Below, piece after piece: positions 10,005 through 63,460 of a DNA stretch of 64,000 bases (position 1 is its first letter; every line of letters starts with the position of its first letter). Under the pieces are notes generated by a model. It was not told where the DNA came from. It saw nothing but the letters and a program-made list of their open reading frames with translations, and did no database searches. Source of the stretch: an uncultured Lachnospiraceae bacterium (GTDB taxonomy: Bacteria; Bacillota; Clostridia; Lachnospirales; Lachnospiraceae); contig CAJUCN010000007.1 in the NCBI GenBank assembly GCA_910585005.1, positions 37,289 through 101,288 of the forward strand. Reading direction: 5' to 3'. A program made the position numbers and the translations under genes.

Positions 10005-10931
10005 ATGTTGGCCAGAAAAAAAAGAAAAATTTTGTTTTCTTTGCTGTTATTCCTTTTATTATCTGCCTGCGGGCAGCCAAAGAAGAATAACAGCGGGGTG
10101 GTCTATCAAATATATTATGTTAACCATGACGAAACCGGAGTTATTTTCAATGAGTATGCCACGGAAACGACAAAAAGGGATGAGCTTGTGGAGGAACTTT
10201 TGGAGCAGATGGGGGCGGAGTCAGAGAAACTGGAGTACAAAGCGCCTCTTGCAGGGAATTTCAAGCTGCTTGGGTTTTCTTTTTCTGAGGACCAGCTTAT
10301 CCTTAATTTTGATGAGAATTACCGCGCACAGCCGGTGATCAATGAAATCCTGGTGCGTGCAGCCCTGGTTAGGACACTGACGCAGATCGAAGGGATTAGT
10401 TATGTTTCTTTTCAGGTCAATTCCCAGCCGCTCTTGGATGCTTCGGGGGCGCTGGTGGGGGTCATGAATGCAGAACAGTTTATTGACAACGCGGGAAACG
10501 AGATCAATACTTATGAGAAAGTGAAGCTGATCCTTTACCTGGCGGATGAAGATGGAGATCATTTAAAGCCGATTACACGGACGGTGGTCTATAACAGCAA
10601 TATTTCTATGGAACGTTTGGTGGTGGAACAACTGATTGCCGGCCCGGCAAAAAATGAAGCGGTATTTCCTACGATTAATCCGGCAACAAAGGTGATCAGC
10701 GTCAATGTGCAGGATGGAATATGTTATGTTAACCTTGGCAGTAACTTTTTAACTCAAATTTTTAATGTGACTTCGGATGTCACGATTTATTCTATCACTA
10801 ATTCGTTGGTGGAGCTATCGAATGTAAACAAGGTCCAGATCTCCATTGATGGAAATACGAATGTAAATTATAAAGAAAATACCAGTCTTTCCACAGTTTT
10901 TGAAAGGAATCTTGAGATTGTGGAACAGTAA
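10005..10931 (+). CDS. GerM-like (GerMN repeat) lipoprotein
   Basis: Has a lipobox LLLSAC-G. Two GerMN-like halves are judged by eye only. Confidence 0.6.
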   Translation: MLARKKRKILFSLLLFLLLSACGQPKKNNSGVVYQIYYVNHDETGVIFNEYATETTKRDELVEELLEQMGAESEKLEYKAPLAGNFKLLGFSFSEDQLILNFDENYRAQPVINEILVRAALVRTLTQIEGISYVSFQVNSQPLLDASGALVGVMNAEQFIDNAGNEINTYEKVKLILYLADEDGDHLKPITRTVVYNSNISMERLVVEQLIAGPAKNEAVFPTINPATKVISVNVQDGICYVNLGSNFLTQIFNVTSDVTIYSITNSLVELSNVNKVQISIDGNTNVNYKENTSLSTVFERNLEIVEQ

Positions 10932-44923: not shown

Positions 44924-45898
44924 CTAATATAAAAACTTTAATTTTTCCTTTTCACAGATCAATGTGATGGAGTGACTCATAACGTTTACTTCTCCGTCAG
45001 TGTGCACCCAGAGGGGAGCGGAGGTTTCCAAATGGATTTTGGAAGCCGTATAGTGATCGATTCCCCGGAAACGGTAATGCTTTCCCATAAAAGCAGTGGG
45101 CAAAGCCAAAAGAACCAGCCACTTAGGGATGTCCCCAATGGCGCAGATGTCAAGCAGGCCGTCATGGAAATCTGCACTAGGACAGAACTTAAATCCACCG
45201 CCTTCGTACTGATGGTTCATACATGCCACAAACAGAAATTTGGGTATGTGGATCTTCTGACCGTCATCAAGAGTAAAATCACATGTGATCTTTTGGGCTT
45301 TGATGAGCTGCTTTAGAGCAATGGTCAGATAGGTTAGTTTCCCAAGACCTATTTTATTCAGGATCTTCTTAAATTTAGAAGTCAATGCTTCCTGACATAC
45401 CGCGGCATCGAACCCGATACCGCTGCTGACGATAAAATATCTTTCATCTGCAGGTTCACTCATTGCCTGCCCCGGCAGGCGCCGGGCAACATGATTGTAG
45501 ATTAGCCGTCCAATATCCATCAAAACAGGCTTCTGGCAGGATAAGATTCTATCCAGGGCTTTGGATGGATCGGTAGGAAGTTTTAAATCCCTTGCCATAT
45601 CGTTGCTGGAACCGGTAGGAATATATCCTACTTCTACATGTTCAAAATCGCTGATCCCCTGCAAAGTTTCATTTAGGGTTCCATCGCCCCCAAGGACAAT
45701 CAGCCTTAATGACGTTCCGGATTCAGGCTTTAATAAAGAAGCAGACAGATTCCGAACTAACTTGATAACATGTCCTGCTTCTTGGGAGAAGAAAACCTTA
45801 TATTCAATTTTTCGCTTCTTCAAAACCGGTTCTATCTGAGCCCAGATATGAGCCCCTTTTCCGGATTTTGAAGCAGGATTTACAATTATATAGTACAT
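44924..45898 (-). CDS. Diacylglycerol/lipid kinase family protein (YegS/BmrU-like)
   Basis: Has the VLGGDGTLNE motif and the two-domain DAGK layout. Confidence 0.85.
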   Translation of the reverse strand: MYYIIVNPASKSGKGAHIWAQIEPVLKKRKIEYKVFFSQEAGHVIKLVRNLSASLLKPESGTSLRLIVLGGDGTLNETLQGISDFEHVEVGYIPTGSSNDMARDLKLPTDPSKALDRILSCQKPVLMDIGRLIYNHVARRLPGQAMSEPADERYFIVSSGIGFDAAVCQEALTSKFKKILNKIGLGKLTYLTIALKQLIKAQKITCDFTLDDGQKIHIPKFLFVACMNHQYEGGGFKFCPSADFHDGLLDICAIGDIPKWLVLLALPTAFMGKHYRFRGIDHYTASKIHLETSAPLWVHTDGEVNVMSHSITLICEKEKLKFLY

Positions 45899-46014
45899 GG
45901 CTGCAACCGTACCTTATCTTTGGCGGCGGCAAAGATGCCGCTCTAAAAATCTTTTCCTATTGTAACAGCATTTTAATAAGTAGTAAAGTTTTTTTAAGCA
46001 TGTTTCGTAAATCT

Positions 46015-46027
46015 TAAGCTTTGCTTA
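46015..46027 (+). repeat. Left copy of the 13-bp border repeat TAAGCTTTGCTTA
   Basis: Exact match to 50160-50172. Itself a small palindrome (TAAGC-TTT-GCTTA). Confidence 0.7.
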
Positions 46028-46277
46028 AGAAAGTGATTATTTTCTAAGCCGCTCATTTATGGAAATGCCCTATTTTACGCTATTTTCTTTTTTGCAGTTA
46101 TTGGAAAAATATAGTGTTTTTTACTTCACTAGTGATAAGCCAGTAACAGGTTCATGACAAAAAGAGCGCCTGAGACAAATTATTGTTCAGGTGCTTTTAT
46201 CAGTTCCACGGCTGCCCTTAATTCTTCAATATCCTTTGACAGGTTTTGGCATATGATATTTCAATGTCCTTTGTGGG

Positions 46278-46679
46278 CTATTCTTCTTTTTTGGTGTAAC
46301 GTGGTACTTCGGTTAGTTCTTCTATACGATTAAAAGCTTCTCTTTTCCCCTTTTCATTTAATAAAGAATAGGACAAAAGCATATTTTCTACATAAGGATC
46401 ATCAAAAGCTTTCCCCGCTAGTTTGATTGCTTCACTTTGATTTAATAAGGCGTCAATTTCCTTTTCCCTTTTTTCTATATAATTTTCAGTTATAAAAATG
46501 TTCCAATCAACATTTAATGCGTGGGCAATTTTTTGAATCGTTTCTATTTTAGGATTGACTTTTCCCGTTTCCCATTGTCCTATTTGCTGCTGGGATATTC
46601 CGCCTAATTTTTCCCCCAGTTCTTTTTGGGTCATATTTCTTTTTATTCGTATGCGTTTAATATTTTCGCCTGTAGTCAT
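46278..46679 (-). CDS. XRE-family HTH repressor (CI-like)
   Basis: HTH IKRIRIKRNMTQKELGEKLGGISQQQIGQWETGK. I prefer the start at Met34 of the tracked ORF (RBS GAGGTGA). Confidence 0.85.
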   Translation of the reverse strand: MTTGENIKRIRIKRNMTQKELGEKLGGISQQQIGQWETGKVNPKIETIQKIAHALNVDWNIFITENYIEKREKEIDALLNQSEAIKLAGKAFDDPYVENMLLSYSLLNEKGKREAFNRIEELTEVPRYTKKEE

Positions 46680-46697
46680 TGTTATCACCTCAAAATA

Positions 46698-46802
46698 ACT
46701 ATATCGTAAAAAGGATTTATTTACAATAAAAAACTTGTTTTTTATATTGACACAAGGAGAATATTGTTGTATATTCAATATAACACAAGAAAAGTATTGT
46801 GT
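46698..46802. promoter_or_regulatory. Divergent promoter pair with two ACACAA-N8-TTGTGT operators
   Basis: Leftward promoter: TTGTAA-17-TATAGT on the minus strand (46726-46698). Rightward promoter: TTGACA (46747) -17- TATATT (46770). O1 lies at 46750-46769 and O2 at 46783-46802, with centres 33 bp apart. Confidence 0.6.
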
Positions 46803-46896
46803 AAAGTAAAAGCTTAGAGGAAGGGAATACGAATGAAAAAGTATCGCCTGTAAGATTTAAAAGTGAAATATGCAGTTAGAAGAAAGGAGAGATAAA

Positions 46897-47049
46897 ATGT
46901 CAATCAAAATAAAAGTATCGTATGAGACGGAGGAGGAGCTTAAAGGAGTTCTGATGCTTCTTGCTCCTGTCAAAAGCTGGACAAGGGCGGCGAAGAAAAG
47001 CGGGAAGTTCTTCCGGGCATACATAACCATGGATCATGTGAAAAAGTGA
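46897..47049 (+). CDS. 50-aa ORF downstream of the rightward switch promoter
   Basis: RBS AAAGGAGAG, 7 nt before the ATG. Translation MSIKIKVSYETEEELKGVLMLLAPVKSWTRAAKKSGKFFRAYITMDHVKK. Below the ORF-track cutoff. Confidence 0.45.
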   Translation: MSIKIKVSYETEEELKGVLMLLAPVKSWTRAAKKSGKFFRAYITMDHVKK

Positions 47050-47151
47050 TTTTAGGTGAAGCTTTCTGCTGTATTTTGGCAGTAAATCCCTTTTTTTTGG
47101 ATTGAAAAGATATATCGGATGATAGGAAGTTCCCGAAAATTAAAAAAATAC

Positions 47152-47180
47152 TTGCATATTTGTTAGTGATCTGATATAAT
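47152..47180 (+). promoter_or_regulatory. Near-consensus extended -10 promoter of the scaffold/capsid operon
   Basis: TTGCAT, 17-bp spacer, TGATATAAT. Confidence 0.6.
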
Positions 47181-47254
47181 CACAATATAGCAAATAGAAC
47201 AAATGTGTACCCTACCCCTTATTCTTCAGTGGGGTGGAAGCCTTTGAATTAATG

Positions 47255-47300
47255 GCGCGGTAATGGCTGATTATGGATATCAGTTATTATGGCGCTTTTT
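47255..47300 (+). terminator. Intrinsic terminator inside the 5' leader of the scaffold/capsid operon
   Basis: 17-bp stem (GCGCGGTAATGGCTGAT / ATCAGTTATTATGGCGC; 1 mismatch, 3 G-U pairs) with a 7-nt loop, followed by TTTTT. It ends 50 nt upstream of the ATG at 47351. Confidence 0.6.
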
Positions 47301-47350
47301 CTGTTTGCCAGAATATAGCCGCACGGGCGTAAAACGGAAAGGAAATAAGT

Positions 47351-47791
47351 ATGGACGATAACACGAAAAACACACAGGCATCAACGCAGCAGGACGGCGC
47401 ACAGCAGCCGGAAAAGCTTTTCACGCAGACAGACGTTGACCGGATCATCAATGGCCGGATTGCACGGATGAAGCAGGACATGGACACCGCCGACCAATAC
47501 AGGCGGGAGCGTGACGATGCCCGGAGGGAACTGGAACAATATAAGAATGACGCTTTCCTGACATCAAAGGGCATAAAGGACGCAGATAGGGATTATGTCA
47601 CTTTTAAGGCTACGCAGATGGTCGATGACAGTACCAGCTTTCAGCAGGCGGTTGAAAACTTTCTGAAAGAGAATCCCCGCTACACGGGCAGGGGTTACAC
47701 GGTTGTTTCCACCGGAAGCAGTGGTAACAGCGGATCTGGCGCCTTTTGTGCTGATGCGGATATCAGGAAAGCCATGGGATTGAAAGGATGA
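47351..47791 (+). CDS. Phage capsid scaffolding-like protein (DUF4355-like)
   Basis: 146 aa. LFTQTDVDRIINGRIARMKQ and a charged helical region resemble phage scaffold proteins. Lies immediately upstream of the capsid-like gene. Confidence 0.65.
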   Translation: MDDNTKNTQASTQQDGAQQPEKLFTQTDVDRIINGRIARMKQDMDTADQYRRERDDARRELEQYKNDAFLTSKGIKDADRDYVTFKATQMVDDSTSFQQAVENFLKENPRYTGRGYTVVSTGSSGNSGSGAFCADADIRKAMGLKG

Positions 47792-47797
47792 TGAATT

Positions 47798-48637
47798 ATG
47801 GCTATTGATTTAGTTGAAAAATATCTGCCCTATGTGGACGAACTTTTCACAACGGAGAGCAAGAAAGAGTTGCTTACAAATAAGGATTTTGCCTTTAAGG
47901 GGGCGCACACGGTAAAAATTTATAAGATCAGCACCGGGAAAATGAATGACTATGGAAGGTCAGGGCCAAGTACAGGGAACTGGTCAAGATATGGTGAGGT
48001 AGAATCGCTTAATGCCACCACCCAGACCTGCACACTGTCAAAAGATCGTTCTTTTACCTTTGCCATTGATGCACTGGACAGTGACGAGACAGGGGATTCT
48101 TTGGAAGCGGCTACGGCGTTGGCAAGGCAGGTCAGGGAAGTGGTGATCCCGGAGGTAGACACTTATGTTTTTGGGGTTATGTGCAATCTGGCAGGGATAA
48201 AGCAGGCGCCGAAAGCGCTGACAAAAACAAATATCTATGAGGAGATCATTAACAGCAATAAACTTCTGGATGATGAACAGGTTCCCGAAACAGGGCGTAT
48301 CCTTGTAGTGACTCCTGCCACTTATCTGCTGATGAAGCAGTGCAAGGATATTACAATGGAGACTGACATGGGCAATGACATGAGGATACGGGGCGTAATT
48401 GCAAACCTTGACGGGCTTACCGTCATGAAGATACCAGCCTCCAGGCTTCCGGAGAAATTCGGGTTCATGGTAGCTCATCCATGTGCAACGGTAGTGCCTA
48501 CAAAGTTGGAAAGCTACATCACGCACCATAACCCGCCTGGGATCAATGGGGATCTGGTAGAGGGCCGTGTTGTGTATGATGCTTTCGTACTGGAAAACAA
48601 GGCAAAGGCTATCTGCTACCAGGAGCTGGAAGCATAA
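47798..48637 (+). CDS. Phage major capsid-like protein
   Basis: 279 aa. YLPYVDELF...KDFAFKGAHTVKIYKISTGKMNDYGR ... FTFAIDALD ... ALARQVREVVIPEVDTYVFG matches my recollection of Firmicutes siphophage major head proteins. Not verified. Confidence 0.65.
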   Translation: MAIDLVEKYLPYVDELFTTESKKELLTNKDFAFKGAHTVKIYKISTGKMNDYGRSGPSTGNWSRYGEVESLNATTQTCTLSKDRSFTFAIDALDSDETGDSLEAATALARQVREVVIPEVDTYVFGVMCNLAGIKQAPKALTKTNIYEEIINSNKLLDDEQVPETGRILVVTPATYLLMKQCKDITMETDMGNDMRIRGVIANLDGLTVMKIPASRLPEKFGFMVAHPCATVVPTKLESYITHHNPPGINGDLVEGRVVYDAFVLENKAKAICYQELEA

Positions 48638-48676
48638 GGTTCAGGAAGGGGCTGCTAACGGCAGCCCTTAACCGAT

Positions 48677-48979
48677 ATGGGAGGGCTTATGAATCGGGTT
48701 GACAGGTTGATTGCAAAGGCGAAAAAATTAGGTTTCGGAAATGGGGATGTATTCCTGATATCTGGTGAGACCGGGGGTTGGAAAGTGGGGGCGAAGGAAT
48801 TTCCCGACCTGGAATCGGCAGAACAGTATGTCGATGCATTGATCGGGGATTCTGGCAATGATTTTACGGTTATCATCAATGACATTACCCCGGAATGCCT
48901 GAAAGGCTTGGAAAAGGAACGGTTGGAAAAAGAACGGTCAGGGAAAGAACAGTTCATGAGAATAGATGAGGACAGATAA
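48677..48979 (+). CDS. Hypothetical protein
   Basis: 100-aa ORF in the same operon. No family recognised. Confidence 0.45.
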   Translation: MGGLMNRVDRLIAKAKKLGFGNGDVFLISGETGGWKVGAKEFPDLESAEQYVDALIGDSGNDFTVIINDITPECLKGLEKERLEKERSGKEQFMRIDEDR

Positions 48980-48984
48980 TTACT

Positions 48985-49194
48985 ATGACACAGATCAGAT
49001 TGAAAGCAAAAACTCCTGCTGATATACGCCGTACCCTTACAAGGATAATAAATATGGTGGTGAATGGTCAGATGGACACCAAAACGGCAAATACGATTAT
49101 AGTAGGGTGCAATGCTGTATTATCTTCTATCCGGGTAGACGAGCAACAGCGTAAAATTGAGGAACTGGAAAAAATAATAAATAATATGGCTTGA
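48985..49194 (+). CDS. Hypothetical small helical protein
   Basis: 69 aa, tightly spaced with its neighbours (5 nt and 9 nt). Confidence 0.45.
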   Translation: MTQIRLKAKTPADIRRTLTRIINMVVNGQMDTKTANTIIVGCNAVLSSIRVDEQQRKIEELEKIINNMA

Positions 49195-49203
49195 GGATGG
49201 GTT

Positions 49204-50097
49204 ATGACAAACGAACAGCTTGTAACATTGATAAAAAACAAAGTAGACGTATCTGACAATATGCTTCAGCTTTGGGAGCAGAACAAGGGCTTCATAAACA
49301 AGATTGCATTTGCTCATCGTGGGTATGAGGACATAGAGGATCTGAAGCAGCAGGGTTATCTTGGCTTATGCCAGGCGGTGGAAGGGTACCGGGAAAAAGA
49401 AGGTGTGCCATTTATCAAATATGCTGCTTTCTGGATCCGTCAGAGCATGGCGCGCTATATAGAAAACTGCGGCAGTGTTGTGAGGATCCCTTCACATGAA
49501 AAACAACGTCAGAGAAAATACATAAAGCTTATTCAAGACTTTAAAGTTCAGATGGGCAGGGAACCTGCCGATTGGGAAGTATGCCATTGTATGCAGATTA
49601 GTTTTAAGATCCTGGAAGAAATAAAAAACAATGCCAGGTTGGGGCAGATCGGAAGCATTGATAACTATATAGGAGAAGATGGTGACAATACGGCTGCCGA
49701 TATGGTAGCGGCGGATGTTGATGTGGAAAGCGCTGTGCTTGACAAAATAGAAAAAGAGGAACTGAAACAGGTGGTATGGTCCGTAGTGGATACACTTCCG
49801 GACAATCAGCCGCAGGTGATACGGTCCATATACCAGGAAGGGAAGAGCCTTAAGGCAACCGGGGAAGAGATAGGCGTGAGCAAGGAGCGCACAAGGATAA
49901 TCAGAGATAAGGCTTTAAAGAAATTAAGGTGTACGGATCGCAAATATAAGCTCATGGCATTTTTGCCGGAAGCAGTGGAAAGCGCCGCATACCGGCATAA
50001 CGGAGTCAGTGAGTTCTGCCGCACATGGACAAGCTCAACGGAGCTTGCAGCCCTGAAAATCTATGAGGAAATAACAGGGCATGTTCTCCCCCAGTGA
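49204..50097 (+). CDS. Sigma-70 family RNA polymerase sigma factor with a C-terminal extension
   Basis: Region 2-like (YLGLCQAVEGYREKEGVPFIKYAAFWIRQSMARYI) and region 4 HTH (SLKATGEEIGVSKERTRIIRDKALKKLR). Confidence 0.8.
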   Translation: MTNEQLVTLIKNKVDVSDNMLQLWEQNKGFINKIAFAHRGYEDIEDLKQQGYLGLCQAVEGYREKEGVPFIKYAAFWIRQSMARYIENCGSVVRIPSHEKQRQRKYIKLIQDFKVQMGREPADWEVCHCMQISFKILEEIKNNARLGQIGSIDNYIGEDGDNTAADMVAADVDVESAVLDKIEKEELKQVVWSVVDTLPDNQPQVIRSIYQEGKSLKATGEEIGVSKERTRIIRDKALKKLRCTDRKYKLMAFLPEAVESAAYRHNGVSEFCRTWTSSTELAALKIYEEITGHVLPQ

Positions 50098-50159
50098 CAG
50101 ACGAGCGGCATCCAGGCTGCAGAAAGCCGCATAATACGGAAAGATTTCTTTCGGGCATA

Positions 50160-50172
50160 TAAGCTTTGCTTA
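50160..50172 (+). repeat. Right copy of the 13-bp border repeat TAAGCTTTGCTTA
   Basis: Exact match to 46015-46027. Confidence 0.7.
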
Positions 50173-50327
50173 GGAGTTTCATAAGGGTTAGCAGGGGAAG
50201 GAATTTGAAATCCTGTTAGGAAACAATAAAAATGGAAAGAAAGGTTTTTTTTCCAATGAGTATGTGATATAATAACTACAATTTGTTATTTTTCAAATCT
50301 TATAGGACGAAAAACGGAGGAACTTAT

Positions 50328-51566
50328 ATGTATTCACTGGACGAGGTAAGGAATTTTGACCCTGAAGTGGCAAAAGCAATTGTGGATGAGCAGGAGAGAC
50401 AAAATAGCCATATTGAACTGATCGCATCCGAGAACTGGGTAAGCAAGGCTGTCATGGCAGCGATGGGAAGCCCTCTTACTAATAAATATGCGGAAGGATA
50501 CCCGGGAAAACGCTATTATGGCGGATGTCAGTGTGTTGACGTGGTGGAGAATCTTGCTATTGACAGAGCAAAGGAACTGTTTGGCTGTGATTATGCAAAT
50601 GTACAGCCTCACTCAGGCGCCCAGGCAAATTTGGCTGTGCAGTTTGCAATCTGTGACCCTGGTGATACGATTATGGGGATGAACTTAGATCACGGCGGTC
50701 ATCTTACCCATGGAAGCCCGGTTAATATTTCAGGCAAGTATTTTCACATAGTACCTTACGGAGTCAATGACGACGGATTTATTGACTATGAAAAGTTACG
50801 GGAAATTGCGTTAGAATGTAAGCCTAAAATGATCATTGCAGGCGCTTCTGCGTATGCAAGAACCATAGATTTTAAGAAGTTCAGGGAGGTTGCAGACGAA
50901 GTAGGGGCTGTGCTTATGGTTGATATGGCACATATTGCAGGTCTTGTTGCGGCAGGACTTCACCCAAGCCCGATTCCCTATGCAGATGTAGTGACCACCA
51001 CGACCCATAAGACTTTAAGGGGGCCAAGAGGCGGTTTGATCCTTTGCAATCAGGAGGCGGCGGAAAAATATAATTTTAATAAAGCAGTATTTCCCGGTAT
51101 TCAGGGTGGGCCGCTGATGCATGTTATTGCCGCGAAAGCAGTCTGCTTTAAAGAAGCATTGTCTGATGAGTTCAAGGCATATCAGAAAGGAATCGTGGAT
51201 AACGCACAAGCGCTTTGTAAAGGATTGATCAATAGAGGAATCAAGATCGTGTCCGGGGGAACCGATAACCACCTGATGTTAATGGACTTGACGCCTTATG
51301 ATCTTACTGGCAAGGCAATTGAGAAAATGCTGGATGAAGCCTATATTACAGCGAATAAGAATACCATTCCCAATGATCCCAAATCACCGTTTGTAACCAG
51401 TGGTGTCCGTCTCGGTACGCCTGCAGTCACGTCAAGAGGCATGGGCATAGAAGATATGGATCAGATTGCCGAAGCCATTGCCATGATCATCAAAGGCGGT
51501 GAAGAGAAGATTCCGGAGGCAAGGGCGATTGTACAGAAGCTGACAGAGAAATATCCGCTTATTTGA
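50328..51566 (+). CDS. glyA: Serine hydroxymethyltransferase
   Basis: Has ELIASENW and the [17 protein letters not shown]-Lys motif. I prefer ATG 50328 (RBS ACGGAGGAA). Confidence 0.95.
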
Positions 51567-56077: not shown

Positions 56078-56150
56078 GCGCGAGTGGCTCAGTTGGTGGA
56101 GCGCGACCTTGCCAAGGTCGAGGCCGCGGGTTCGAGTCCCGTCTCGCGCT
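56078..56150 (+). tRNA. tRNA-Gly: tRNA-Gly (anticodon GCC), no encoded CCA
   Basis: Hand-folded cloverleaf: acceptor GCGCGAG/CTCGCGC, D-arm GCTC..GAGC, anticodon stem CGACC/GGTCG with loop TTGCCAA, T-arm GCGGG TTCGAGT CCCGT. Confidence 0.9.
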
Positions 56151-56152
56151 CT
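56130..56152 (+). repeat. attL core (3' end of the intact tRNA-Gly)
   Basis: GTTCGAGTCCCGTCTCGCGCTCT, identical to 63954-63976. Confidence 0.9.
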
Positions 56153-56161
56153 TTTTAAAGA

Positions 56162-56200
56162 AGCGGAAACGTTGATAAATACAGCGTTTCCGCTATTTTT
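56162..56200 (+). terminator. Terminator after the tRNA (element-borne)
   Basis: AGCGGAAACG / CGTTTCCGCT stem followed by ATTTTT. Confidence 0.7.
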
Positions 56201-56203
56201 GTG

Positions 56204-56235
56204 TGTCTACAAATCGGTAGACAGTTGTAGACAGT
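56204..56235 (+). repeat. GTAGACA repeats next to int (candidate arm-type sites)
   Basis: TGTCTAC (inverted) at 56204-56210, GTAGACAGT at 56217-56225 and TTGTAGACAGT at 56225-56235. Confidence 0.5.
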
Positions 56236-56247
56236 ACCTTAGTACCA

Positions 56248-57438
56248 TTACAATGCCTTTGTTATGAGGTCATAGGTTTCTTTTTCGGTCAGCGGATTGT
56301 AGATATATTCTAAGGTTGTGGAAAGGTTGCTATGCCCTAACATTTCCCTGATACAATCTAGCGGTACACCGTTCGCGTTCAGATTACTTGCATAGGTCTT
56401 ACGCATTTTATGGGTGCTCTTTGTGCGTACTCCCTGTCTCTCCGCAAACTTCTCCAATACATAAGCTATCTGTCTGGATGTAATGCGTTCCCCATCCCTC
56501 ATAAAAATGTACTTCCCCTGTTTTGGTATCTCCTCTAAGATTGATACCGCTTTCGGAATAAGGATAACAAAACGGTCACGGTTTGTTTTGGTATGCTCTA
56601 CTACCTCATATTGGTTTGTTTCCTGATTTCTGACTTCTTCACGGACAATATGAAGATGTGAAAGGTCTTTGCAGTCTTCCCATTTAAGGGCGGCTAACTC
56701 ACCCACACGCAGGCCGAGCAAAAAATTGATTTTTACAGCCAGAAATGCAACATCCTCTGTCTCTGTATACATTTTGTCAAGATACTGGTTCAGTTCCTTT
56801 AATTCCTCTGTATTGTAAGTCTCTGTCCTGCCCGTTTTCTTGACAATCTGTCTGTACTTGACGTATATCTCTACCTTATCCATAGGATTATCAGTCAGAT
56901 ATCTTTTCCTTATACTATATGTATACATCCCATTGAGAATCGTCTTTATGTTGCACCACTCTTTTCTGGACAAGTTAAACTCCTTTACAATACGGTTGCA
57001 CTCCTGTTCCAATATAAGTTCGTCAATCTTCTTGATTTTCATATCATGCAGGACAGACGGTTCAAAATATTTGCGGTAGTGCTGTCTGTGCCTTTTAATG
57101 GTATTAGAACTGTTTGTAACAGTAGCCTTATACGCAAGCCATTCTTCATAAAGTCCGTAAAATGTTAAGTTGTCAATGTGCGTATTAGCGAAATATATTG
57201 GAATCAGCTTATCCAACAATTCCTCTTTTGATTGTGCCTTGATATTTTTGCGCTTTCCTTTTTCATCTTTATAGCAGGTCTGCCAACGTCCGTTTGCAGT
57301 AGACGGTGGAGTAATCGCATAAGGGTGCATTTTTAATATAGTATCTATCTTCTTTGACATAAGCATATCAAGCACACTGTCTATATTTATTATACCAAGT
57401 TCTACGGCATTTTGCAATATTTCGTTCTGTTTTTCCAT
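56248..57438 (-). CDS. Tyrosine recombinase / integrase
   Basis: 396 aa with a C-terminal catalytic region (HKMRKTYAS ... LGHSNLSTTLEYIY). Adjacent to attL. Confidence 0.9.
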   Translation of the reverse strand: MEKQNEILQNAVELGIINIDSVLDMLMSKKIDTILKMHPYAITPPSTANGRWQTCYKDEKGKRKNIKAQSKEELLDKLIPIYFANTHIDNLTFYGLYEEWLAYKATVTNSSNTIKRHRQHYRKYFEPSVLHDMKIKKIDELILEQECNRIVKEFNLSRKEWCNIKTILNGMYTYSIRKRYLTDNPMDKVEIYVKYRQIVKKTGRTETYNTEELKELNQYLDKMYTETEDVAFLAVKINFLLGLRVGELAALKWEDCKDLSHLHIVREEVRNQETNQYEVVEHTKTNRDRFVILIPKAVSILEEIPKQGKYIFMRDGERITSRQIAYVLEKFAERQGVRTKSTHKMRKTYASNLNANGVPLDCIREMLGHSNLSTTLEYIYNPLTEKETYDLITKAL

Positions 57439-57681
57439 ATTTTCACCACCTTTTACAGTGGTGTAAAGAATTGCATTTTCGTGGAATATTAATGTTTTTT
57501 AATTTGATGAGTTTGTCAGATTTTTAAGATGCTTTATTTTTTCAATAGTTATATTATAAGTTTATTTTCTTTTTCTTCTTTATTGTTATGTCACTCTTTA
57601 CACCTTTTGTTTCATTGTTTCATAAACGGGTTTTCCGAATCTGGAATCTCTCGAAATCCATATAAATAGTCTTTACTATAC

Positions 57682-58584
57682 CTATATTTTGGTATCGCCC
57701 AATGATGAGTTTTCAAAAACTCTACTTATGCGGCGTTCCGTCTTTGCGGTTATCAGATAGCCTGTATCTGTCTGGGACAGTGCGCCCGTTTCCGGGTCTG
57801 CCGTCAGATTGTAAATGCCGGTCTCTATAACGTTCCTGCCGTCCTCATCTGTTTCAATGACTCCAAAATTGGGTGTGAAGACCTTCAGGTCACTATTATC
57901 TTTCATACCGAAGGTTACGGCTGGCTTTGCAAGTCCCTGTGAATTAAAGTACCGTTTCTTGTTGTACATCTCTTTATCGGTCAGCAGGGCGGTAGTCACA
58001 TATTTTGTGATATAGGAAGCGGCTCTCTCCGGGCTTTCGATTTCTTCGCAGTCACTGAACCCGTATTCCCATTCAGGCAGGTTGTACACCTGTCTGTTGT
58101 GCCTGATGACGGGCTTCCCGGTCTTTGCATTTACCGCTTCCACAAAGTAAGCGGTAACATCACCTAACAGCCCATGGAAATGAACTGCCCCAGATTTGTG
58201 CAGTTCGGGTATCATCAGATAATCAAACTGTTTATGCCTGTCTCTCATTTTCCTGCACCATTTTAAGAGGGTATTTTTTGCCGTTTCATAATCGGAACTG
58301 TTCACCTTTTCCGGGTCGAAGGTAAGGGTCACGAACCATCGGAAGCCGTTACAGAGTGCATATCCTTTTATCTTTCTCCGGATGGCGTATATCTGTTGCC
58401 GTGTCCGTGCTTCCTGTGCTTCAGCCGTCGTTTCGGCTTCCTTGCTACATGGCGTTCTGCCGCTCCCCATGTAGCGGAGTCTTGGGGAATGGTAAGCCGC
58501 TATCTCTATCCTCCCGTTCCCATAGTCTGTTGTACGCCTGTTGTATTCCTTGCAATCATCAGAATGCAAGCTGTCTGCATCCAT
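57682..58584 (-). CDS. HUH-type rolling-circle Rep / relaxase
   Basis: Has FVTLTFD and the HUH motif AVHFHGLL. I prefer the start at Met94 of the tracked ORF (RBS GGAGGG, 7 nt upstream). The upstream 93 codons lie in the GC-rich segment. Confidence 0.75.
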   Translation of the reverse strand: MDADSLHSDDCKEYNRRTTDYGNGRIEIAAYHSPRLRYMGSGRTPCSKEAETTAEAQEARTRQQIYAIRRKIKGYALCNGFRWFVTLTFDPEKVNSSDYETAKNTLLKWCRKMRDRHKQFDYLMIPELHKSGAVHFHGLLGDVTAYFVEAVNAKTGKPVIRHNRQVYNLPEWEYGFSDCEEIESPERAASYITKYVTTALLTDKEMYNKKRYFNSQGLAKPAVTFGMKDNSDLKVFTPNFGVIETDEDGRNVIETGIYNLTADPETGALSQTDTGYLITAKTERRISRVFENSSLGDTKI

Positions 58585-58628
58585 ATCATTTCCCTCCGTT
58601 TCTGTGTTTTCTGGTGTTTCCGTCGCAA

Positions 58629-58860
58629 CATTGCCTTTTGTCAAGTAAGGCAATGCCGCGCCGCCTTCCCCCATCCTGCCTCCTGCATGTCCCGGCAGTG
58701 GCCGCGCCGCCCGCTCCCTCCCTGCCGCCGCACACTTGCAGGGATACAGCGGCCTTTGGCGGCAGGCCGCCCCGGCCGCCATCCCCTGCCCAGTGCGGCA
58801 TCCGTAAGAGCAGGCGCGCATCCACCACAGGACGCACGGCGGCAGAAGAGGGCGGCGGCT
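58629..58860. other. GC-rich (~70%) non-coding segment with hairpins; candidate origin (oriT/dso)
   Basis: Perfect 9-bp hairpin CATTGCCTT/AAGGCAATG at 58629-58655. Inverted repeat CCTGCCGCC/GGCGGCAGG at 58721-58766. My hand count is ~73% GC over 58651-58860, and the surrounding DNA is much more AT-rich. Confidence 0.45.
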
Positions 58861-59063
58861 CACTTTTCTGTCTTACGAAAGGCGGGTGTAAAACGGAAGC
58901 CGCCGGAAACAATGGCACGGTAGCCGTTCTCTGTCTGCACAGGCTTTTCTTTCAGATAATCCAGTGCATACCACCGCGCCATCTGCCTTTTGTCCGTGCT
59001 GATGATGCAGGTCTCCCCGTTTTCCAGTTCCAGTACATGGAACCCTTTAACGTCCTTCCCCAT
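58860..59063 (-). CDS. Small hypothetical protein between the FtsK-like and Rep genes
   Basis: 67 aa. Overlaps the FtsK-like gene's 3' end by 17 nt. Confidence 0.45.
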   Translation of the reverse strand: MGKDVKGFHVLELENGETCIISTDKRQMARWYALDYLKEKPVQTENGYRAIVSGGFRFTPAFRKTEK

Positions 59064-60381
59064 ATGGGTTCGCCCCCCTTTTCTTTAGTTTCCTTAACAA
59101 TTCCCCGTAATTGGCAAGCCTCCCGGAGAGCAGGGGCGTTTTGATATAGGCCGGCCTGTCGGTTTCCGGGGTGACTGCATAACCTTTCCCCTTGCCGCCC
59201 CGATATACCGTTCCGATATCCTTCTTATACATGCCGGTTACCTGATGGAAAGTTTCGTCCGAGACTGACTTCCCTAAGATGATGCGCGTCTGGCACTGTT
59301 CCGTAATGGATTTAGGCAGGTCAGTGGCATTTAACTTCTGCGCCGTAATGACGATGGAGAACCCTGCGGCTCTTCCCTTTAATGCAATCTGTCCTAACAG
59401 CTTTTCAATCCGCTCCTTATCCTTTTTTTCCGCAAAGGACACCACGGACAGGATTTCATCAAAAATAAGGATATATCCCGGCATCCCTTTTTCCCGGAAA
59501 TCCAGCCCTTCTGAACCATCAGCCCGATAAAGCAGGGAATACCGTTTTTCCATTTCCTCAACAAGTTCAGTAAGCATCTGGATGATTTCTTTTATATCTG
59601 TGGCAACCGGTACACCGGCATAGCGGAATATCATCCCGAAGTCAGAGTTTTTCGCGTCTACCACATACAGCCTGTGCTGGCGTTTCAAAACCATGCCGCT
59701 AAAATATACTAAAAGACGTGTCTTCCCCGCACCGCTTGGGGCAATCAGCAGGATGTGAATGGCTTCACTGGTGAAATCCCATATCACTTCGCCATAAATG
59801 GGAATTGGCTCATAACTTAACACCGGCACATAACGTTCCATCGGTTCGATGATATCCTCCAACATCTTTTCCATGGCGTTAAAGCGTTCAGGGGGAAGGC
59901 CGAAAACATAACAGGCCATGCCGTCACCTTCCTCATATCTGAGCAGGGGCTTCCACAGATATTCCGACAGCCGCCGCCCTATGTCAGCCGTATCTTTTTC
60001 AAGTCCTTTCGGGTAAAGGACGACGGTAACCTTTCCGTTTTCTACGCTGTACTGCCACTGGACAAAACAGCGCAGAAACCCATCCCCTTCCGAGTGCAGG
60101 AACATCCGGGTAAAAAGAATAAGTTCTTTACGGATTTTAAGACATTTCACAGGCGAAAACCGAGACAGCAACCATACCGACAGGGCAAGGGTTATCAGCA
60201 GTGCAAGACCAGACAAAAACACGGCCTGCAATATCCGCCTTATGGCGGGAGTGACGGTTAAGCCGCTCCCGTTCACGTTGGCAATGGCGGGGAAAATCAC
60301 AAACATCAGGGATATAAACAGTAACGATTGTTTTAAGGCTGTTATTATCTTACCGTCTGTCCTTATCTTCAAAGTGTGCAT
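59047..60381 (-). CDS. FtsK/SpoIIIE-family DNA translocase (TcpA/Tra-like)
   Basis: Two N-terminal TM helices, Walker A APSGAGKT and Walker B-like ILIFDE. Confidence 0.85.
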   Translation of the reverse strand: MHTLKIRTDGKIITALKQSLLFISLMFVIFPAIANVNGSGLTVTPAIRRILQAVFLSGLALLITLALSVWLLSRFSPVKCLKIRKELILFTRMFLHSEGDGFLRCFVQWQYSVENGKVTVVLYPKGLEKDTADIGRRLSEYLWKPLLRYEEGDGMACYVFGLPPERFNAMEKMLEDIIEPMERYVPVLSYEPIPIYGEVIWDFTSEAIHILLIAPSGAGKTRLLVYFSGMVLKRQHRLYVVDAKNSDFGMIFRYAGVPVATDIKEIIQMLTELVEEMEKRYSLLYRADGSEGLDFREKGMPGYILIFDEILSVVSFAEKKDKERIEKLLGQIALKGRAAGFSIVITAQKLNATDLPKSITEQCQTRIILGKSVSDETFHQVTGMYKKDIGTVYRGGKGKGYAVTPETDRPAYIKTPLLSGRLANYGELLRKLKKRGANPYGEGR

Positions 60382-60396
60382 TTTCCTTTTCCCCCT

Positions 60397-60825
60397 TTAC
60401 TTTACTTCTTCCAGTCTGGTGACCATCAGTTTCAGCCCTTTCGCGGCATAGCCGGTGAACTTCCCGCCGCTCATATTTGCTATCAGGGCGAACTTGTAAT
60501 CAACAAGACGGTATTTTTTGTTGACTGCCGCCACGGGGTCTAACTCTGTGTTGAGCAGGGTCACTTCAAAGCTGACAGCATCCTCTAACGTTGTGCCGCC
60601 CATGACCTCAATCTTCTGGGTGGTATCCTTTGTATCTTCGTTCATATAAGGATTTCTCAGCTTTTTTACAGTCACTACGTTCGGCACAGGGAAACAACGC
60701 CGGAGTGCTTTCTGCACTTCGTCTTCCTCAAGCACTCCTTTGAGGCGTATCTCTGCGGGGCTGATGTACATATCCTTCAAATCAGTGACATTTCCATTTG
60801 CTTCAATATTATTTTCTTTAATCAT
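60397..60825 (-). CDS. Hypothetical protein preceding the translocase gene
   Basis: 142-aa ORF with an RBS. Its position is analogous to the small ORFs that precede the FtsK-like gene in Tn916-type elements (an analogy only). Confidence 0.5.
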   Translation of the reverse strand: MIKENNIEANGNVTDLKDMYISPAEIRLKGVLEEDEVQKALRRCFPVPNVVTVKKLRNPYMNEDTKDTTQKIEVMGGTTLEDAVSFEVTLLNTELDPVAAVNKKYRLVDYKFALIANMSGGKFTGYAAKGLKLMVTRLEEVK

Positions 60826-61065
60826 AGTTTACCTGCCTTTCTTAACTATAAAATGTTTTAAGTTGCATGTTACTGTTGGACAGTTTTGTGTCATGTCCGG
60901 GACATGATATGCAAAAACATTCATTGAGTCCCCCTTTCCTTAGTAAAATTTTTAGATGATATAAACAGGATAAGCCAGGGGATATCCGGCTACCCAGATA
61001 CCCCCCATTTTCAGAAAAAATTTTTAGACATGCCTGAGACTTTAACACCATTCTTTGATGACACT

Positions 61066-61392
61066 TTAATCTATAAGGTCAGAGAGTTCACATTGAAGCA
61101 CATGTGCAATATTTATAGCTGTTTTTAATTTGATATTATCGCTTTTGCCGGACAGATAATCCGCATAAGTGGAAAGACCAATACCGGCTTTCTCTGCCAG
61201 TTGCTTCTGAGTATACCCGTCAAACACCATCTGTCGTTTTTTCCGCCTATGCTCTACTTCACTCATAAAAGATTCAAACCAACGATAGTTTTCCGTATCG
61301 TCAATTTCGCGTTCAGCTATTACGTCATTCTTTAAATCCTGTTCCAGTTCTGCATGGGTTTTATGTTTTGCATATACATATTGTCTATCCAT
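61066..61392 (-). CDS. XRE-family HTH regulator of the element
   Basis: HTH YTQKQLAEKAGIGLSTYADYLSGK. I prefer the start at Met73 of the tracked ORF (RBS AAGGAA). Confidence 0.75.
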   Translation of the reverse strand: MDRQYVYAKHKTHAELEQDLKNDVIAEREIDDTENYRWFESFMSEVEHRRKKRQMVFDGYTQKQLAEKAGIGLSTYADYLSGKSDNIKLKTAINIAHVLQCELSDLID

Positions 61393-61838
61393 ACAAGTTT
61401 CCTTATATGGTGCGCACCTTAATTCTCCTTTCGCTTTTATAGTCAATACCGGTATTTTTTCATAATGGCCATTGTGCCTAAAAGACACTTTATAAAAATT
61501 TAATAAAAAAACCCCTAAACAAACCTTATCCAGTAGACGATAGTATTTAAGAGAGTTGAAGAGAAGAAGTGAGATAAAGGGTTGTAGGTAATTAATTTTA
61601 TTATTCAAAAAAGATGAGGGGAACGGGGATTCTCCCCGTGAGTGAGGGCGCGGCGTATGCCGCGGCCACCTATATAAATAAGGAATGATTGTAGATTAAT
61701 AAAGGTTGAAATATAAAAGAAATGTAAAAGAGAGTGGATTGTGAAAATGAAAAACCACTCTCTTTCTTTTATGGAAGATATTAAAAACGAATCACAATAA
61801 ACAATAGCAGAGGTCTCCCTCTGCTATTGTCATTATTC

Positions 61839-62522
61839 TTACTGTACAGGAACTGTGGATAATGCCAATGTGCCGTTAATCTTAATCCCGCTTACACCAA
61901 GCTCCGTATACAGATAATTAGCGTCACCCTTTGTCATGCCTATCGCATAGCCGGTTGTGTCCACATCGTCAGCAAAAGTGATGTTCACATACCAGAGATT
62001 GTCTTCACCCTTTACCAGTGCCGCTGTCTTATAAGCCACGCCTGTTCCGTCCGTATTGCCTACGGTATAGGTTGCCTTGCTTACGCCACAGTGATATACC
62101 TGGAAGGACTTGTGGTTGCCCGCCATTACCATACGGAACTTCTGTCCGCCTTCAACGCCCATTGTCACGTCATTAGGATTCTTTTTAGCGACAGGTGTAT
62201 AGGAAGCGCCATTGTCTGAAGAACCACCGTCATAGGAACTGCCCCCATCATAGGAACCGGAATCAGAATAGCTGCTGTCTGAAGAACCACCGTCATAGGA
62301 ACCGGAATCGCTGCTGCCGGAATCAGAGGAACTGCTGCCGGAACTGGAAGAACTGCTGCCGGAATCAGGATCCGAAAGGTTGAAATCAGAATCCCCGCCA
62401 TACTCATGTTCCGGTGCATCTGCATTAAATCCAAATGCATGCGATGTAATCGCTGTCTGGGGAGATGCGAGAACCAGTGCCATTGCGAATGCTGTTGCAA
62501 GAACTTTGTATAATTTTCTCAT
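61839..62522 (-). CDS. Secreted protein with a Ser/Gly/Asp/Tyr low-complexity repeat region
   Basis: Has a signal peptide (MRKLYKVLATAFAMALVLASPQTAITSHA), then SSSSSGSSSSDSGSSDSGSYDGGSSDSSYSDSGSYDGGSSYDGGSSDNG, then a beta-rich C-terminal domain. Confidence 0.7.
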   Translation of the reverse strand: MRKLYKVLATAFAMALVLASPQTAITSHAFGFNADAPEHEYGGDSDFNLSDPDSGSSSSSSGSSSSDSGSSDSGSYDGGSSDSSYSDSGSYDGGSSYDGGSSDNGASYTPVAKKNPNDVTMGVEGGQKFRMVMAGNHKSFQVYHCGVSKATYTVGNTDGTGVAYKTAALVKGEDNLWYVNITFADDVDTTGYAIGMTKGDANYLYTELGVSGIKINGTLALSTVPVQ

Positions 62523-63133
62523 AATCATATACCTCCGTGCTTGTTGTGTGTTTGTCTGTTTCAAAAAAATTACGGGGTGTGGGGCGAAGCCCCATGCCGT
62601 GCCCGGACATATGTCCGGGATACTTTGATACTGTAATCAAACAGTTGTTATAAATCTTTTCTTCATCGTAATTATCTCTTTTTCATAACCTCTCTTTCAT
62701 AAGTAATTGTTTATCAGAACATCCCAACAGTCCGGCAGAGGGGGCATAGTTTTATGCCCTCTGCCAATTCTGCCGAGATAAACAATAAGAAAGCGGCGCA
62801 GGATTTATCTTTCCTACACCGCTGAAAATACAGCACCACAAATCTAAATACGTGCTGGTTTCCCACTTGAAATAGTGTGGAAAATTCGCTATACTTGACT
62901 TGGCGCATTATATGCTGTGTGGGAGGTCTCGTCTCCTGCATAGGGGTGTAGGGAATTGGCGTTCCCTACATCCTGCCTTTTATTATCTATCTCGTTTTTC
63001 ATTATACCGCCACTGTATAAAATTAGCAAGAGGGTATCTTTCTCAAATAGAATAAACTGTATTGTTTACTCTGACTTCTATTTCCTTTTACTTTCCCATT
63101 TTAAGTATGCTATAATATTATAATAGAAAGTAG

Positions 63134-63460
63134 GTGAAAAAAGTGGCTCTGCTTATCAACGATTTAAGAAAGCTGTGTACAGATGATACTGTTATAATGA
63201 CTGCACATGTTATAAAACGGTGCAGGGAAAGAAATATTGATTCAGACAGTATTATAAAAGTCATTATGCAAGGCGAAATCATAAAGCAATATGAAGATGA
63301 TAAACCGTTCCCCAGTTGCCTGCTATTGGGATTGTCAATAAATGGCAAATACTTACATGTAGTCGTTGCAAGCGATAATATCAATCTGCATATAATAACG
63401 GCATACTACCCAAGTATTGAAGAATGGGAGCCGGACTTTAAAACAAGAAAGGGGCGTTAA
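63134..63460 (+). CDS. DUF4258-like toxin candidate
   Basis: TAHVIKRCRERNI ... YLHVVVA ... IITAYYP pattern. The start is GTG 63134 or GTG 63143. Confidence 0.65.
   Translation: MKKVALLINDLRKLCTDDTVIMTAHVIKRCRERNIDSDSIIKVIMQGEIIKQYEDDKPFPSCLLLGLSINGKYLHVVVASDNINLHIITAYYPSIEEWEPDFKTRKGR

Follow-up and report, generated by a model that had tools for sequence, protein, structure and literature searches.

The 4.2-kb island examined here (46015–50172) lies between dagK and glyA in a 64-kb stretch of DNA from an uncultured Lachnospiraceae bacterium; the whole of this stretch is referred to below as the window, to which all positions refer unless another locus is named. The island is very probably a grounded deletion derivative of a ~9-kb capsid-encoding integrative element that is widespread in gut Clostridia. 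The window copy lacks the integrase and replication genes that its relatives carry, and is therefore a defective derivative; it is a product of ordinary decay and opens no new category. Its family, the leader RNA of the capsid operon, the copies embedded in candidate helper phages and the recurrent minimal cassette hold more weight than the island itself. The elements of the family are probably phage satellites, for which a helper supplies what a major capsid protein (MCP) and a scaffold do not.

The island is a site-specific integrative element, with direct repeats at its ends and a single copy of the repeat at the empty site of relatives. The 13-nt sequence TAAGCTTTGCTTA occurs exactly two times in the window, at 46015..46027 (attL core) and at 50160..50172 (attR core), against a chance expectation of 0.14; two or more matches were obtained in 0/100 shuffles. 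In a sister genome (L011) the same neighborhood, a PAP2 gene followed by dagK (70% amino acid identity) and glyA (94%), has its dagK–glyA gap filled by an 8.7-kb element. The left part of that element comprises a gene for a 354-aa tyrosine integrase next to dagK, an XRE gene, cro-like helix-turn-helix (HTH) genes and the gene of a DUF6291 protein; the remainder encodes a DnaC-like loader, an M78 peptidase-like protein, the small protein o50, scaffold, MCP, an o100-like protein, o69 and a sigma factor. Both of its ends carry TTAAGGTTTGCTTA, a 1-nt variant of TAAGCTTTGCTTA, at the same positions relative to dagK and glyA. The empty-site junction predicted from the L011 comparison, AAATCTTAAGSTTTGCTTAGGAGTTT, is present in two metagenome contigs, where dagK (72–73%) adjoins glyA (92–95%) with a single copy of the core. 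The single core at empty sites, together with the repeats flanking the L011 element, identifies the 13-mer as the att core, and the interpretation of the two 13-mers as att scars in a preliminary description of this DNA, which had itself proposed the search for an empty site, is thus upheld. All contigs with the exact MCP and flanks sit at dagK–glyA; mouse gut samples in which the species occurs include ERZ777316 and SRR22052423. The left arm inside the element, adjoining attL (46028..46148), aligns with L011 3586–3731, from the core to the integrase stop codon, at 73% identity; it holds CTAGTGA(C/T)A-like repeats, and L011 has similar 'ctagtgaca' repeats immediately within its attR. These repeats are candidate integrase arm sites.

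Two scars record how the window copy was reduced. The first is an integrase pseudogene stub at about 46180..46281 on the minus strand, which consists of the last ~33 codons with an in-frame stop; in a tblastn search with family integrases it matched the integrase C-terminus of another family element, L075, at E 2e-4 ('MGHKGQ..VYTHKDLDQLRAAVETIKVGPE' in L075 vs 'IAHKGH*NIICQNL..SKDIEELRAAVELIKAPE' in the window), and it abuts the XRE stop codon. The second is a truncated cro-like gene of 6 codons (MKKYRL*; 46834..46854, plus strand), which forms the left boundary of the second deletion. Alignment with L075 and L047 covers the early promoter, the two operators and the cro ribosome-binding site and ATG; the homology of cro to these two loci ends within a few codons and the frame closes after six; homology to other elements picks up again at 46880–46898, near o50. 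The integrase stub, the cro stub and this homology map show that two deletions took place, one of the integrase body and one of some 4 kb that carried early and replication genes; in relatives the latter segment holds cro, an excisionase-like HTH gene and either a D5-type primase gene or genes for a replisome organiser and a DnaC-like loader. An intact element had entered a ~13–14-bp core between dagK and glyA by means of a tyrosine recombinase, duplicating the core; one deletion then reduced the integrase gene to its 3′ end, and the other, of about 4 kb, ran from cro codon ~6 to just upstream of o50. Retained were the XRE gene, the pair of operators overlapping the early promoter and the whole late module, from o50 through sigma. 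The window copy has presumably lost autonomous excision and replication, and two gates would still control its capsid operon, XRE acting at the early promoter and the terminator acting in the leader.

The preliminary description had called the island integrase-less, which holds for a functional integrase gene but overlooks the degraded C-terminus, and had found it unlike decay, a judgement overturned by the integrase stub, the truncated cro gene and the 8.7-kb sister element at the same att site. Among the three readings that it offered, a doubly deleted remnant comes closest, except that the parent was a ~9-kb capsid-encoding element instead of a full prophage; a capsid-encoding satellite fits the parent family but not the window copy, and a domesticated module draws some support from recurrent independent reductions. 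Its expectation that the last two would be undescribed is outdated for the family, since a 2025 preprint covers 8.9-kb gut elements of like gene content.

Loci of the family were sought in species-representative (GTDB) genomes with an MCP alignment, which gave 540 candidate loci. In the best 80 of these 540, which come from Lachnospiraceae, Oscillospiraceae and other Clostridia, the MCP is 64–94% identical; an MCP of no less than 64% identity is present in at least 80 species-representative genomes of Clostridia, and relatives occur on hundreds of IMG/VR contigs. Gene maps were drawn for about 55 GTDB loci and about 40 IMG/VR contigs, and a single architecture emerged: leftward integrase and XRE genes, then, rightward, a cro-type HTH gene, an excisionase-like HTH gene (phrog_989), replication genes (either a ~610-aa D5_N/DUF5906 primase; phrog_864, E 2e-151; or a replisome organiser with a DnaC-like loader), small open reading frames (ORFs), o50, scaffold, MCP and one of two right-end modules. 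The sigma gene lies inside attR and is the last gene of the element in 24/55 GTDB loci, and some members carry a head-tail adaptor match (phrog_615, E 6e-40). A sub-lineage (L049 11667–12050, L047, L084, L095 and L032) has C13, o69, C21 and the head-tail adaptor instead of a terminal sigma gene, so that there are two alternative right-end modules, sigma or adaptor. Among loci with enough upstream flank, 30/36 have a tyrosine integrase and 1/36 a serine recombinase. Isolates with integrase-bearing elements include Clostridium porci WCA-389, Dorea sp. 5-2 and Lachnospiraceae 62-26. No portal, terminase, protease, tail or lysis gene was found in the mapped family loci.

Six IMG/VR contigs of 8.4–10.6 kb have terminal overlaps and are circular assemblies with the full gene set; L096 (8379 bp), for example, encodes integrase, XRE repressor, excisionase, primase, o50, scaffold, MCP and sigma. 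L170 is a further intact close relative, with an MCP 85% identical. Identity of the MCP is 57–94% inside the family vs at most 48% to complete 20–40-kb phages. One contig of 17.6 kb (L122, IMGVR_UViG_3300006217_000570) contains identical leader-RNA matches at 1920–2039 and 10433–10552, 8513 nt apart, a spacing suggesting that an ~8.5-kb element was assembled in tandem or as a concatemer, which would fit a replicative or packaged concatemer. The early operon of L170 includes a Phage_pRha gene (Rha-type regulatory or antirepressor-like; 5025–5669), and L011 has an M78 (ImmA/IrrE-like) peptidase gene at 8641–8937; both may be induction components, and both were lost from the window copy.

Identification of the 279-aa ORF (47798..48637, plus strand) as an HK97-fold MCP is secure. 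It matches phrog_422 at E 1.8e-55 and is 41–48% identical to annotated major head proteins of Streptococcus Javan phages, Geobacillus phage phiOH2 and Bacillus phage TP21-L; complete siphophages with a homologous MCP have genomes of 35–38 kb. A profile of 52 sequences matched, among PDB entries, 8e16 (E 4e-18), P-SCSP1u gp19 (1.6e-9) and T7 gp10A (2e-5). An alignment of 23 sequences (74–94% identical) had yielded an AlphaFold model with a predicted local distance difference test score (pLDDT) of 40; it was replaced by the 52-sequence alignment, which includes representatives of 30–60% identity, and the resulting AlphaFold (AF2) model has a pLDDT of 83.3 and a predicted TM-score (pTM) of 0.79. 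The best Foldseek match of this model is Mycobacterium phage Che8 8e16 (E 7e-13, TM 0.66–0.68), with T7 and others next; the top 45 PDB matches are capsid proteins of phages or archaeal viruses without exception, and the first encapsulin ranks 46th (E 4.6e-8). The capsid fold suspected in the preliminary description thus came out of Foldseek as predicted. Directly upstream of the MCP gene, here as throughout the family, lies the gene of a 146-aa head scaffolding protein (47351..47791, plus strand; phrog_2303, E 1.2e-14).

Expression of the early region is under an XRE/CI-like repressor encoded on the minus strand (46278..46679; 133 aa from an ATG at 46679; HTH_3, E 5.5e-19). The repressor also matches the phrog_8 and phrog_3 repressors, an RstR-like match falls below cutoff, and no S24 peptidase domain was found; the gene call is identical across independent assemblies. 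The rightward early promoter and its two operators occupy 46747..46800 (plus strand): the promoter, TTGACA-17-TATATT at 46747–46775, scores 11 of 12 in a promoter scan, and the two palindromes lie at 46751–46767 and 46784–46800. Operator positions, one over the −35 element and one downstream of −10, are kept in L075 and L047 though the XRE repressors and half-sites differ; the half-sites read CACAAG..ATTGTG in the window, CACACC..GGTGTG in L075 (~4840–4900) and CAGAAG..CTTCTG in L047 (~5280–5340). This variation looks like distinct immunity types within the family, and the XRE/operator switch postulated earlier is upheld.

The late operon is preceded by a second promoter (47152..47180, plus strand; TTGCAT-17-TATAAT with an extended −10, TGaTATAAT, its TG at 47172–47173), and the same promoter architecture lies 120–290 nt upstream of the scaffold gene across the family; the promoter scan overlooked it because the −35 element is TTGCAT. 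A structured leader RNA with an intrinsic terminator follows at 47186..47313 (plus strand). Its helices are P1 (47190–47199/47299–47308), P2 (47212–47218/47231–47237) and a terminator stem (47254–47296) with a U-run at 47297–47301. A leader terminator had been predicted and is real, but it is this long hairpin with its U-run and not the first hairpin; a simple terminator scan overlooked it. The leader folds into a three-way junction with a minimum free energy of −47 kcal/mol (z −3.9). Conserved blocks comprise GCAAATAGAA, GAGTACCSC with a hairpin, GGAAGCC or GTTAGTC, and GGCRYGGGAA opening the long hairpin, which closes with YRYGCC ahead of the U-run.

A covariance model of this RNA (R1) matches the window at 47172–47313 (91.6 bits, E 7e-13). 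Matches are found once per family locus, on the coding strand and always upstream of the scaffold gene: 64 in 81 GTDB sources, the window included, and 35 in IMG/VR family contigs. The model had no match in 37 full-phage contigs and none elsewhere in 2.2 Mb. Copies in ~98 related loci include L008 9360–9501 and L096 5409–5535. When 32 sequences were aligned with MAFFT, blind to structure, pairing in the two helices was 97% vs 83% in column shuffles and 39–56% in slid controls, with double substitutions in 65 cells vs 21 expected; in 64 model-aligned sequences, an alignment that leans towards the structure because it was fitted to it, pairing is 97.9% vs 78.4% shuffled, with 170 double-substitution cells. 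P1, in which the 5′ end pairs with the U-run and following bases, forms in about half of the members from differing sequences; in a column-based test 16/31 sequences reach p ≤ 0.05 (mean z −2.1), so that P1 is supported in many members and its universality is not claimed. An upstream copy of the 5′ half of the terminator ('GGCATGAG'), considered as an antiterminator helix, occurs in only about a third of the members and is likewise not claimed. An Rfam search of 45800–50400 gave no match at E ≤ 1, and the leader therefore cannot be assigned to a known family; it is a candidate for an undescribed cis-regulatory RNA, an antitermination target or a small RNA. By analogy, the constitutive-looking late promoter and terminated leader would act like lambda PR′-tR′, in which case read-through would need an antitermination signal from the element or a helper. 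The strongly covarying leader with its terminator is a potential late-gene switch.

That the family elements are satellites is suggested by their PICI-like left half (that of a phage-inducible chromosomal island), by the descent of their MCP from siphophage MCPs and by the head-tail adaptor of some members, which would have no role absent a portal and tail. Two copies lie inside candidate helpers: L088 2739–13225 and L128 1853–12770, both from IMG/VR sample 3300045988, are elements within the late operon of the same prophage and are closely related (91–98% nucleotide identity). In L088 the element splits the prophage MCP gene into residues 1–98 and 88–297, and a 14-bp core, CCCATGGACATTGA, is duplicated at both junctions; L128 has an uninterrupted phage MCP gene, its element being inserted about 1 kb further downstream in the gene of a 128-aa head-completion protein. 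Phage MCP and element MCP share only 24–25% identity. Such copies speak for a satellite lifestyle and single out candidate helper phages. On derepression, such elements would excise, replicate and assemble small procapsids from their own MCP and scaffold, and would take the portal, terminase and tail from a helper siphophage; the terminal sigma factor, to judge by its place in the element, would redirect host RNA polymerase to helper late genes or element promoters.

Several observations weigh against the account given so far, that of a decayed copy of a helper-dependent element. The helper-embedded copies come from metagenomic contigs of one sample. A tblastn search of the window with phage proteins of L088 and L128 for a helper prophage returned the island and an unrelated integrase at 56.3 kb only, and the 64-kb window has no phage structural genes outside the island. 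Neither a recognizable packaging signal nor a small terminase was found. Three of the proteins of the late module lack family matches: o50 and o100 have none in Pfam, PHROG, NCBIfam or PDB profiles, and o69 has none in Pfam, PHROG or NCBIfam and no significant PDB match. The antitermination and sigma roles are read from gene architecture and by analogy. The match to the clade of Aguilar et al. (2025) is one of described size, gene content and habitat. Finally, none of the surviving ORFs, the six late ones included, is disrupted, and at least three independent assemblies, which derive from different samples, agree over the island at 100% identity; this would also fit retention for a host function.

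The last point, and the recurrence of the reduced form, bear on the reading that survives best after that of simple decay, namely that the cassette of XRE, capsid, scaffold and sigma genes is a domesticated module kept by the host because it is useful. An integrase-less, replication-less island also occurs between a glycosyltransferase gene and rmuC in two assemblies (L173 3651–7541 and L174; Logan SRR24150562 / SRR24150588), with genes for XRE, scaffold, MCP (87% identical), an o100-like protein, o69 and sigma. The breakpoints are not those of the window. The final ten codons of the integrase gene ('...EELREAVEMI*') have become an in-frame extension of the XRE ORF, and the second deletion, which starts within cro and ends at the U-run of the leader, has removed o50 together with the late promoter and leader RNA, so that the XRE-controlled promoter now directly governs the capsid operon. 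A third reduced copy (L067 9047–10834) keeps XRE, scaffold and MCP between host genes, and the locus of Blautia hominis KB1 (L019) is without an integrase. At least two independent reductions have therefore reached the same set of XRE, capsid and sigma. Ratios of nonsynonymous to synonymous substitution (dN/dS) of 0.04–0.13 also speak for constraint (o50 0.11, vs L011; scaffold 0.125, vs L008; MCP 0.039; sigma 0.10), but mostly reflect history preceding the deletions, and retention of a repressor is expected from purifying selection against toxic derepression. There is, moreover, no cargo-like gene, the cases number only 2–3, and ascertainment is biased: every locus was found through its MCP, so that remnants without a capsid gene are invisible. 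Domestication is on balance possible, though it is not the favored explanation of the island; its most plausible use would be interference with the assembly of helper-type phages, satellite capsid proteins produced upon infection misdirecting or titrating portal and terminase, and a protein nanocompartment would be a less plausible one. A doubtful, more specific proposal is that hosts have repeatedly exapted grounded copies: the minimal cassette of XRE, scaffold, MCP, two small proteins and sigma would serve in anti-phage defence as a decoy for capsid assembly, triggered by phage and made from the capsid genes of the satellite, and the leader RNA would be an undescribed riboregulator, or a target of antitermination, through which a helper-phage signal controls capsid expression.

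It is unlikely that the family consists instead of autonomous tailless, portal-less HK97 viruses or of intermediates between procapsids and encapsulins, the window holding a dead provirus of one. This interpretation is the one given by the 2025 preprint; complete elements are all without portal, terminase and tail, and an encapsulin does appear among the Foldseek matches, if only at rank 46 (E 4.6e-8). It leaves the head-tail adaptor of some members pointless and does not sit well with elements embedded in prophage late genes, and the best structural and sequence matches of the MCP are tailed-phage capsid proteins. Also counting against an autonomous virus, no HK97 capsid is known to package double-stranded DNA without a portal and a terminase.

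Unlikely, too, is that the island is still mobile as a non-autonomous mini-satellite, for which a co-resident relative would supply integrase, excisionase and replication in trans before packaging. The attL and attR cores are intact and identical, the arm region beside attL is kept and homologous to that of L011, and the capsid module and leader are intact; against this, the same deletion form was seen at no other site, the replication origin probably lay within the deleted primase/replication region, and the window holds no second element of the family. Descent from a full-length 35–40-kb prophage formerly at dagK–glyA is very improbable and was rejected, for although capsid and scaffold are phage-derived (48% identity to MCPs of Streptococcus Javan prophages), the larger form at the same site is just 8.7 kb, circular assemblies measure 8.4–10.6 kb, the MCP shows a gap between 57–94% identity in the family and ≤ 48% to full phages, and the leader RNA is missing from the full phages (L131–L167). 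Deletion in place from a ~9-kb element remains the preferred origin of the window copy.

Among the other features of the island, every ORF of the earlier gene list was recovered at its position by ORF listing and family scans, and the capsid, scaffold and sigma assignments were confirmed by phrog_422, phrog_2303 and Sigma70_r2 with r4, respectively. Pfam and PHROG family scans found no portal, terminase, protease, tail, lysis or replication gene in the island itself. The conserved 50-aa protein o50 (46897..47049, plus strand) has 18 distinct homologues, which occupy the same position in family loci. The small conserved protein o100 (48677..48979, plus strand) has homologues that come after the MCP in L011, L013 and L170, and its N-terminal motif 'IDRLI.KAKK' is shared with cluster C13. 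The small conserved protein o69 (48985..49194, plus strand) has 20 distinct homologues, downstream of the MCP in every case; a suspected identity as small terminase found no support in family or PDB-profile searches and was dropped. The terminal gene (49204..50097, plus strand) encodes a 297-aa sigma-70 family factor with regions 2, 3 and 4, not of the extracytoplasmic function type; it matches phrog_351 at E 1e-39 and is RpoD_Cterm-like (E 3e-33), yet falls under every equivalog cutoff.

The island is flanked by dagK, which encodes a DAGK/YegS-type lipid kinase (44924–45898, minus strand), and by glyA (serine hydroxymethyltransferase), which begins at about 50325. Further along the window, a tRNA-Gly gene (56078–56151) is followed by a separate integrative element that is unrelated to the island (56078–63460). 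It carries genes for a tyrosine integrase (56248–57438, minus strand), a rolling-circle Rep of the REP_ORF2-G2P type (57682–58863, minus strand), an FtsK/SpoIIIE ATPase (59047–60381, minus strand), an HTH regulator and a DUF4258 protein, and looks like a small integrative mobilizable or conjugative element.

The layout of the late region resembles that of lambda PR′-tR′ and its antiterminator Q in having a strong sigma-70-type promoter, a ~110–130-nt leader, an intrinsic terminator and a morphogenesis operon next; it differs in that no Q-like or other antiterminator was identified and in that the leader has its own conserved three-way-junction structure, without an Rfam match. Encapsulin operons are defined by an HK97-fold shell gene beside a cargo enzyme gene, with no phage scaffold or mobile-element context; the island was excluded from this class by its phage-type scaffold gene upstream, by its att-flanked integrative form and by the 46th rank of its best encapsulin structural match.

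The closest counterpart is a dominant human-gut clade of contigs with direct terminal repeats (8.9 ± 0.6 kb), in which, according to the accessible text of the preprint, the structural genes comprise nothing beyond MCP and scaffold, terminase, portal and tail are lacking, and the rest includes sigma factors, repressors, an integrase with or without excisionase, and RepA/helicase/DnaI-type genes (Aguilar et al., 2025; bioRxiv 10.1101/2025.06.18.659913). Its members were named 'Encapsulin-enriched mini viral entities'; procapsid-encapsulin transitions are discussed there and possible helper dependence is mentioned. The intact relatives L011, L096 and L170 fit each described point, in a comparison by description. 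The window copy shares the MCP and scaffold as sole structural genes, the sigma factor and the repressor, and differs in its length of 4.2 kb and its missing integrase and replication genes. The preprint, as far as its accessible text goes, reads the clade as a possible virus-encapsulin bridge, unlike the satellite reading preferred here, and reports no att sites, host genomes, helper-embedded copies or leader RNA; papers on gut DNA packaged in virus-like particles do not mention the family. Neither Rfam nor that text contains the conserved promoter with its leader RNA and terminator or the recurrent reduction to the same gene set. The window adds a chromosomal att site for which both the empty and the fully occupied allele are known, and evidence of in-place decay to the recurrent core of XRE, capsid and sigma. 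The abundance of the family in gut Clostridia makes it likely that these elements shape phage-host dynamics and gene transfer in the gut.

Among satellites, PICIs are defined by int, a regulator, pri-rep, a capsid-morphogenesis gene and terS, with no phage structural genes (SatelliteFinder, PMC10085698). Like PICIs and the Staphylococcus aureus pathogenicity islands (SaPIs), to which they are similar in size, members of the family use unique att sites and have a repressor/cro switch with divergent transcription, an xis-like HTH gene and a primase of the D5 type; they also share the order int-stl-str-xis-pri, with a morphogenesis module behind it. The family differs in that PICIs have no capsid gene, remodel helper capsids (Cpm) and redirect packaging via their own TerS, whereas the family encodes its own capsid; it has int, regulator and pri-rep but also an MCP and no detectable terS, and the window copy is without int and pri-rep as well. 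The elements of L088 and L128 share the helper-embedded configuration of the helper-embedded PICIs (HE-PICIs; PMC10111431) but belong to another element family and are known from two metagenomic contigs only, and the window copy occupies a chromosomal intergenic site.

The capsid-forming PICIs (cf-PICIs), which reportedly go back to Alqurainy et al. in 2023, resemble the family in being integrative satellites with an int-regulator-primase left half, a capsid gene of their own and helper dependence. They have at least 9/11 core components, with head-tail connectors, a portal, protease/HNH, terL and terS among them, and take nothing but tails from the helper (SatelliteFinder, PMC10085698). The family, in contrast, is limited to MCP and scaffold, although some members also have an adaptor and a sigma factor is frequent; neither the window nor the other loci yielded terL, terS, portal, protease/HNH or connector genes, save for that adaptor. 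Satellites that build their own shell without a recognizable portal, terminase or tail would occupy a new middle position, between PICIs, for which the helper provides everything, and cf-PICIs, for which it provides only the tails.

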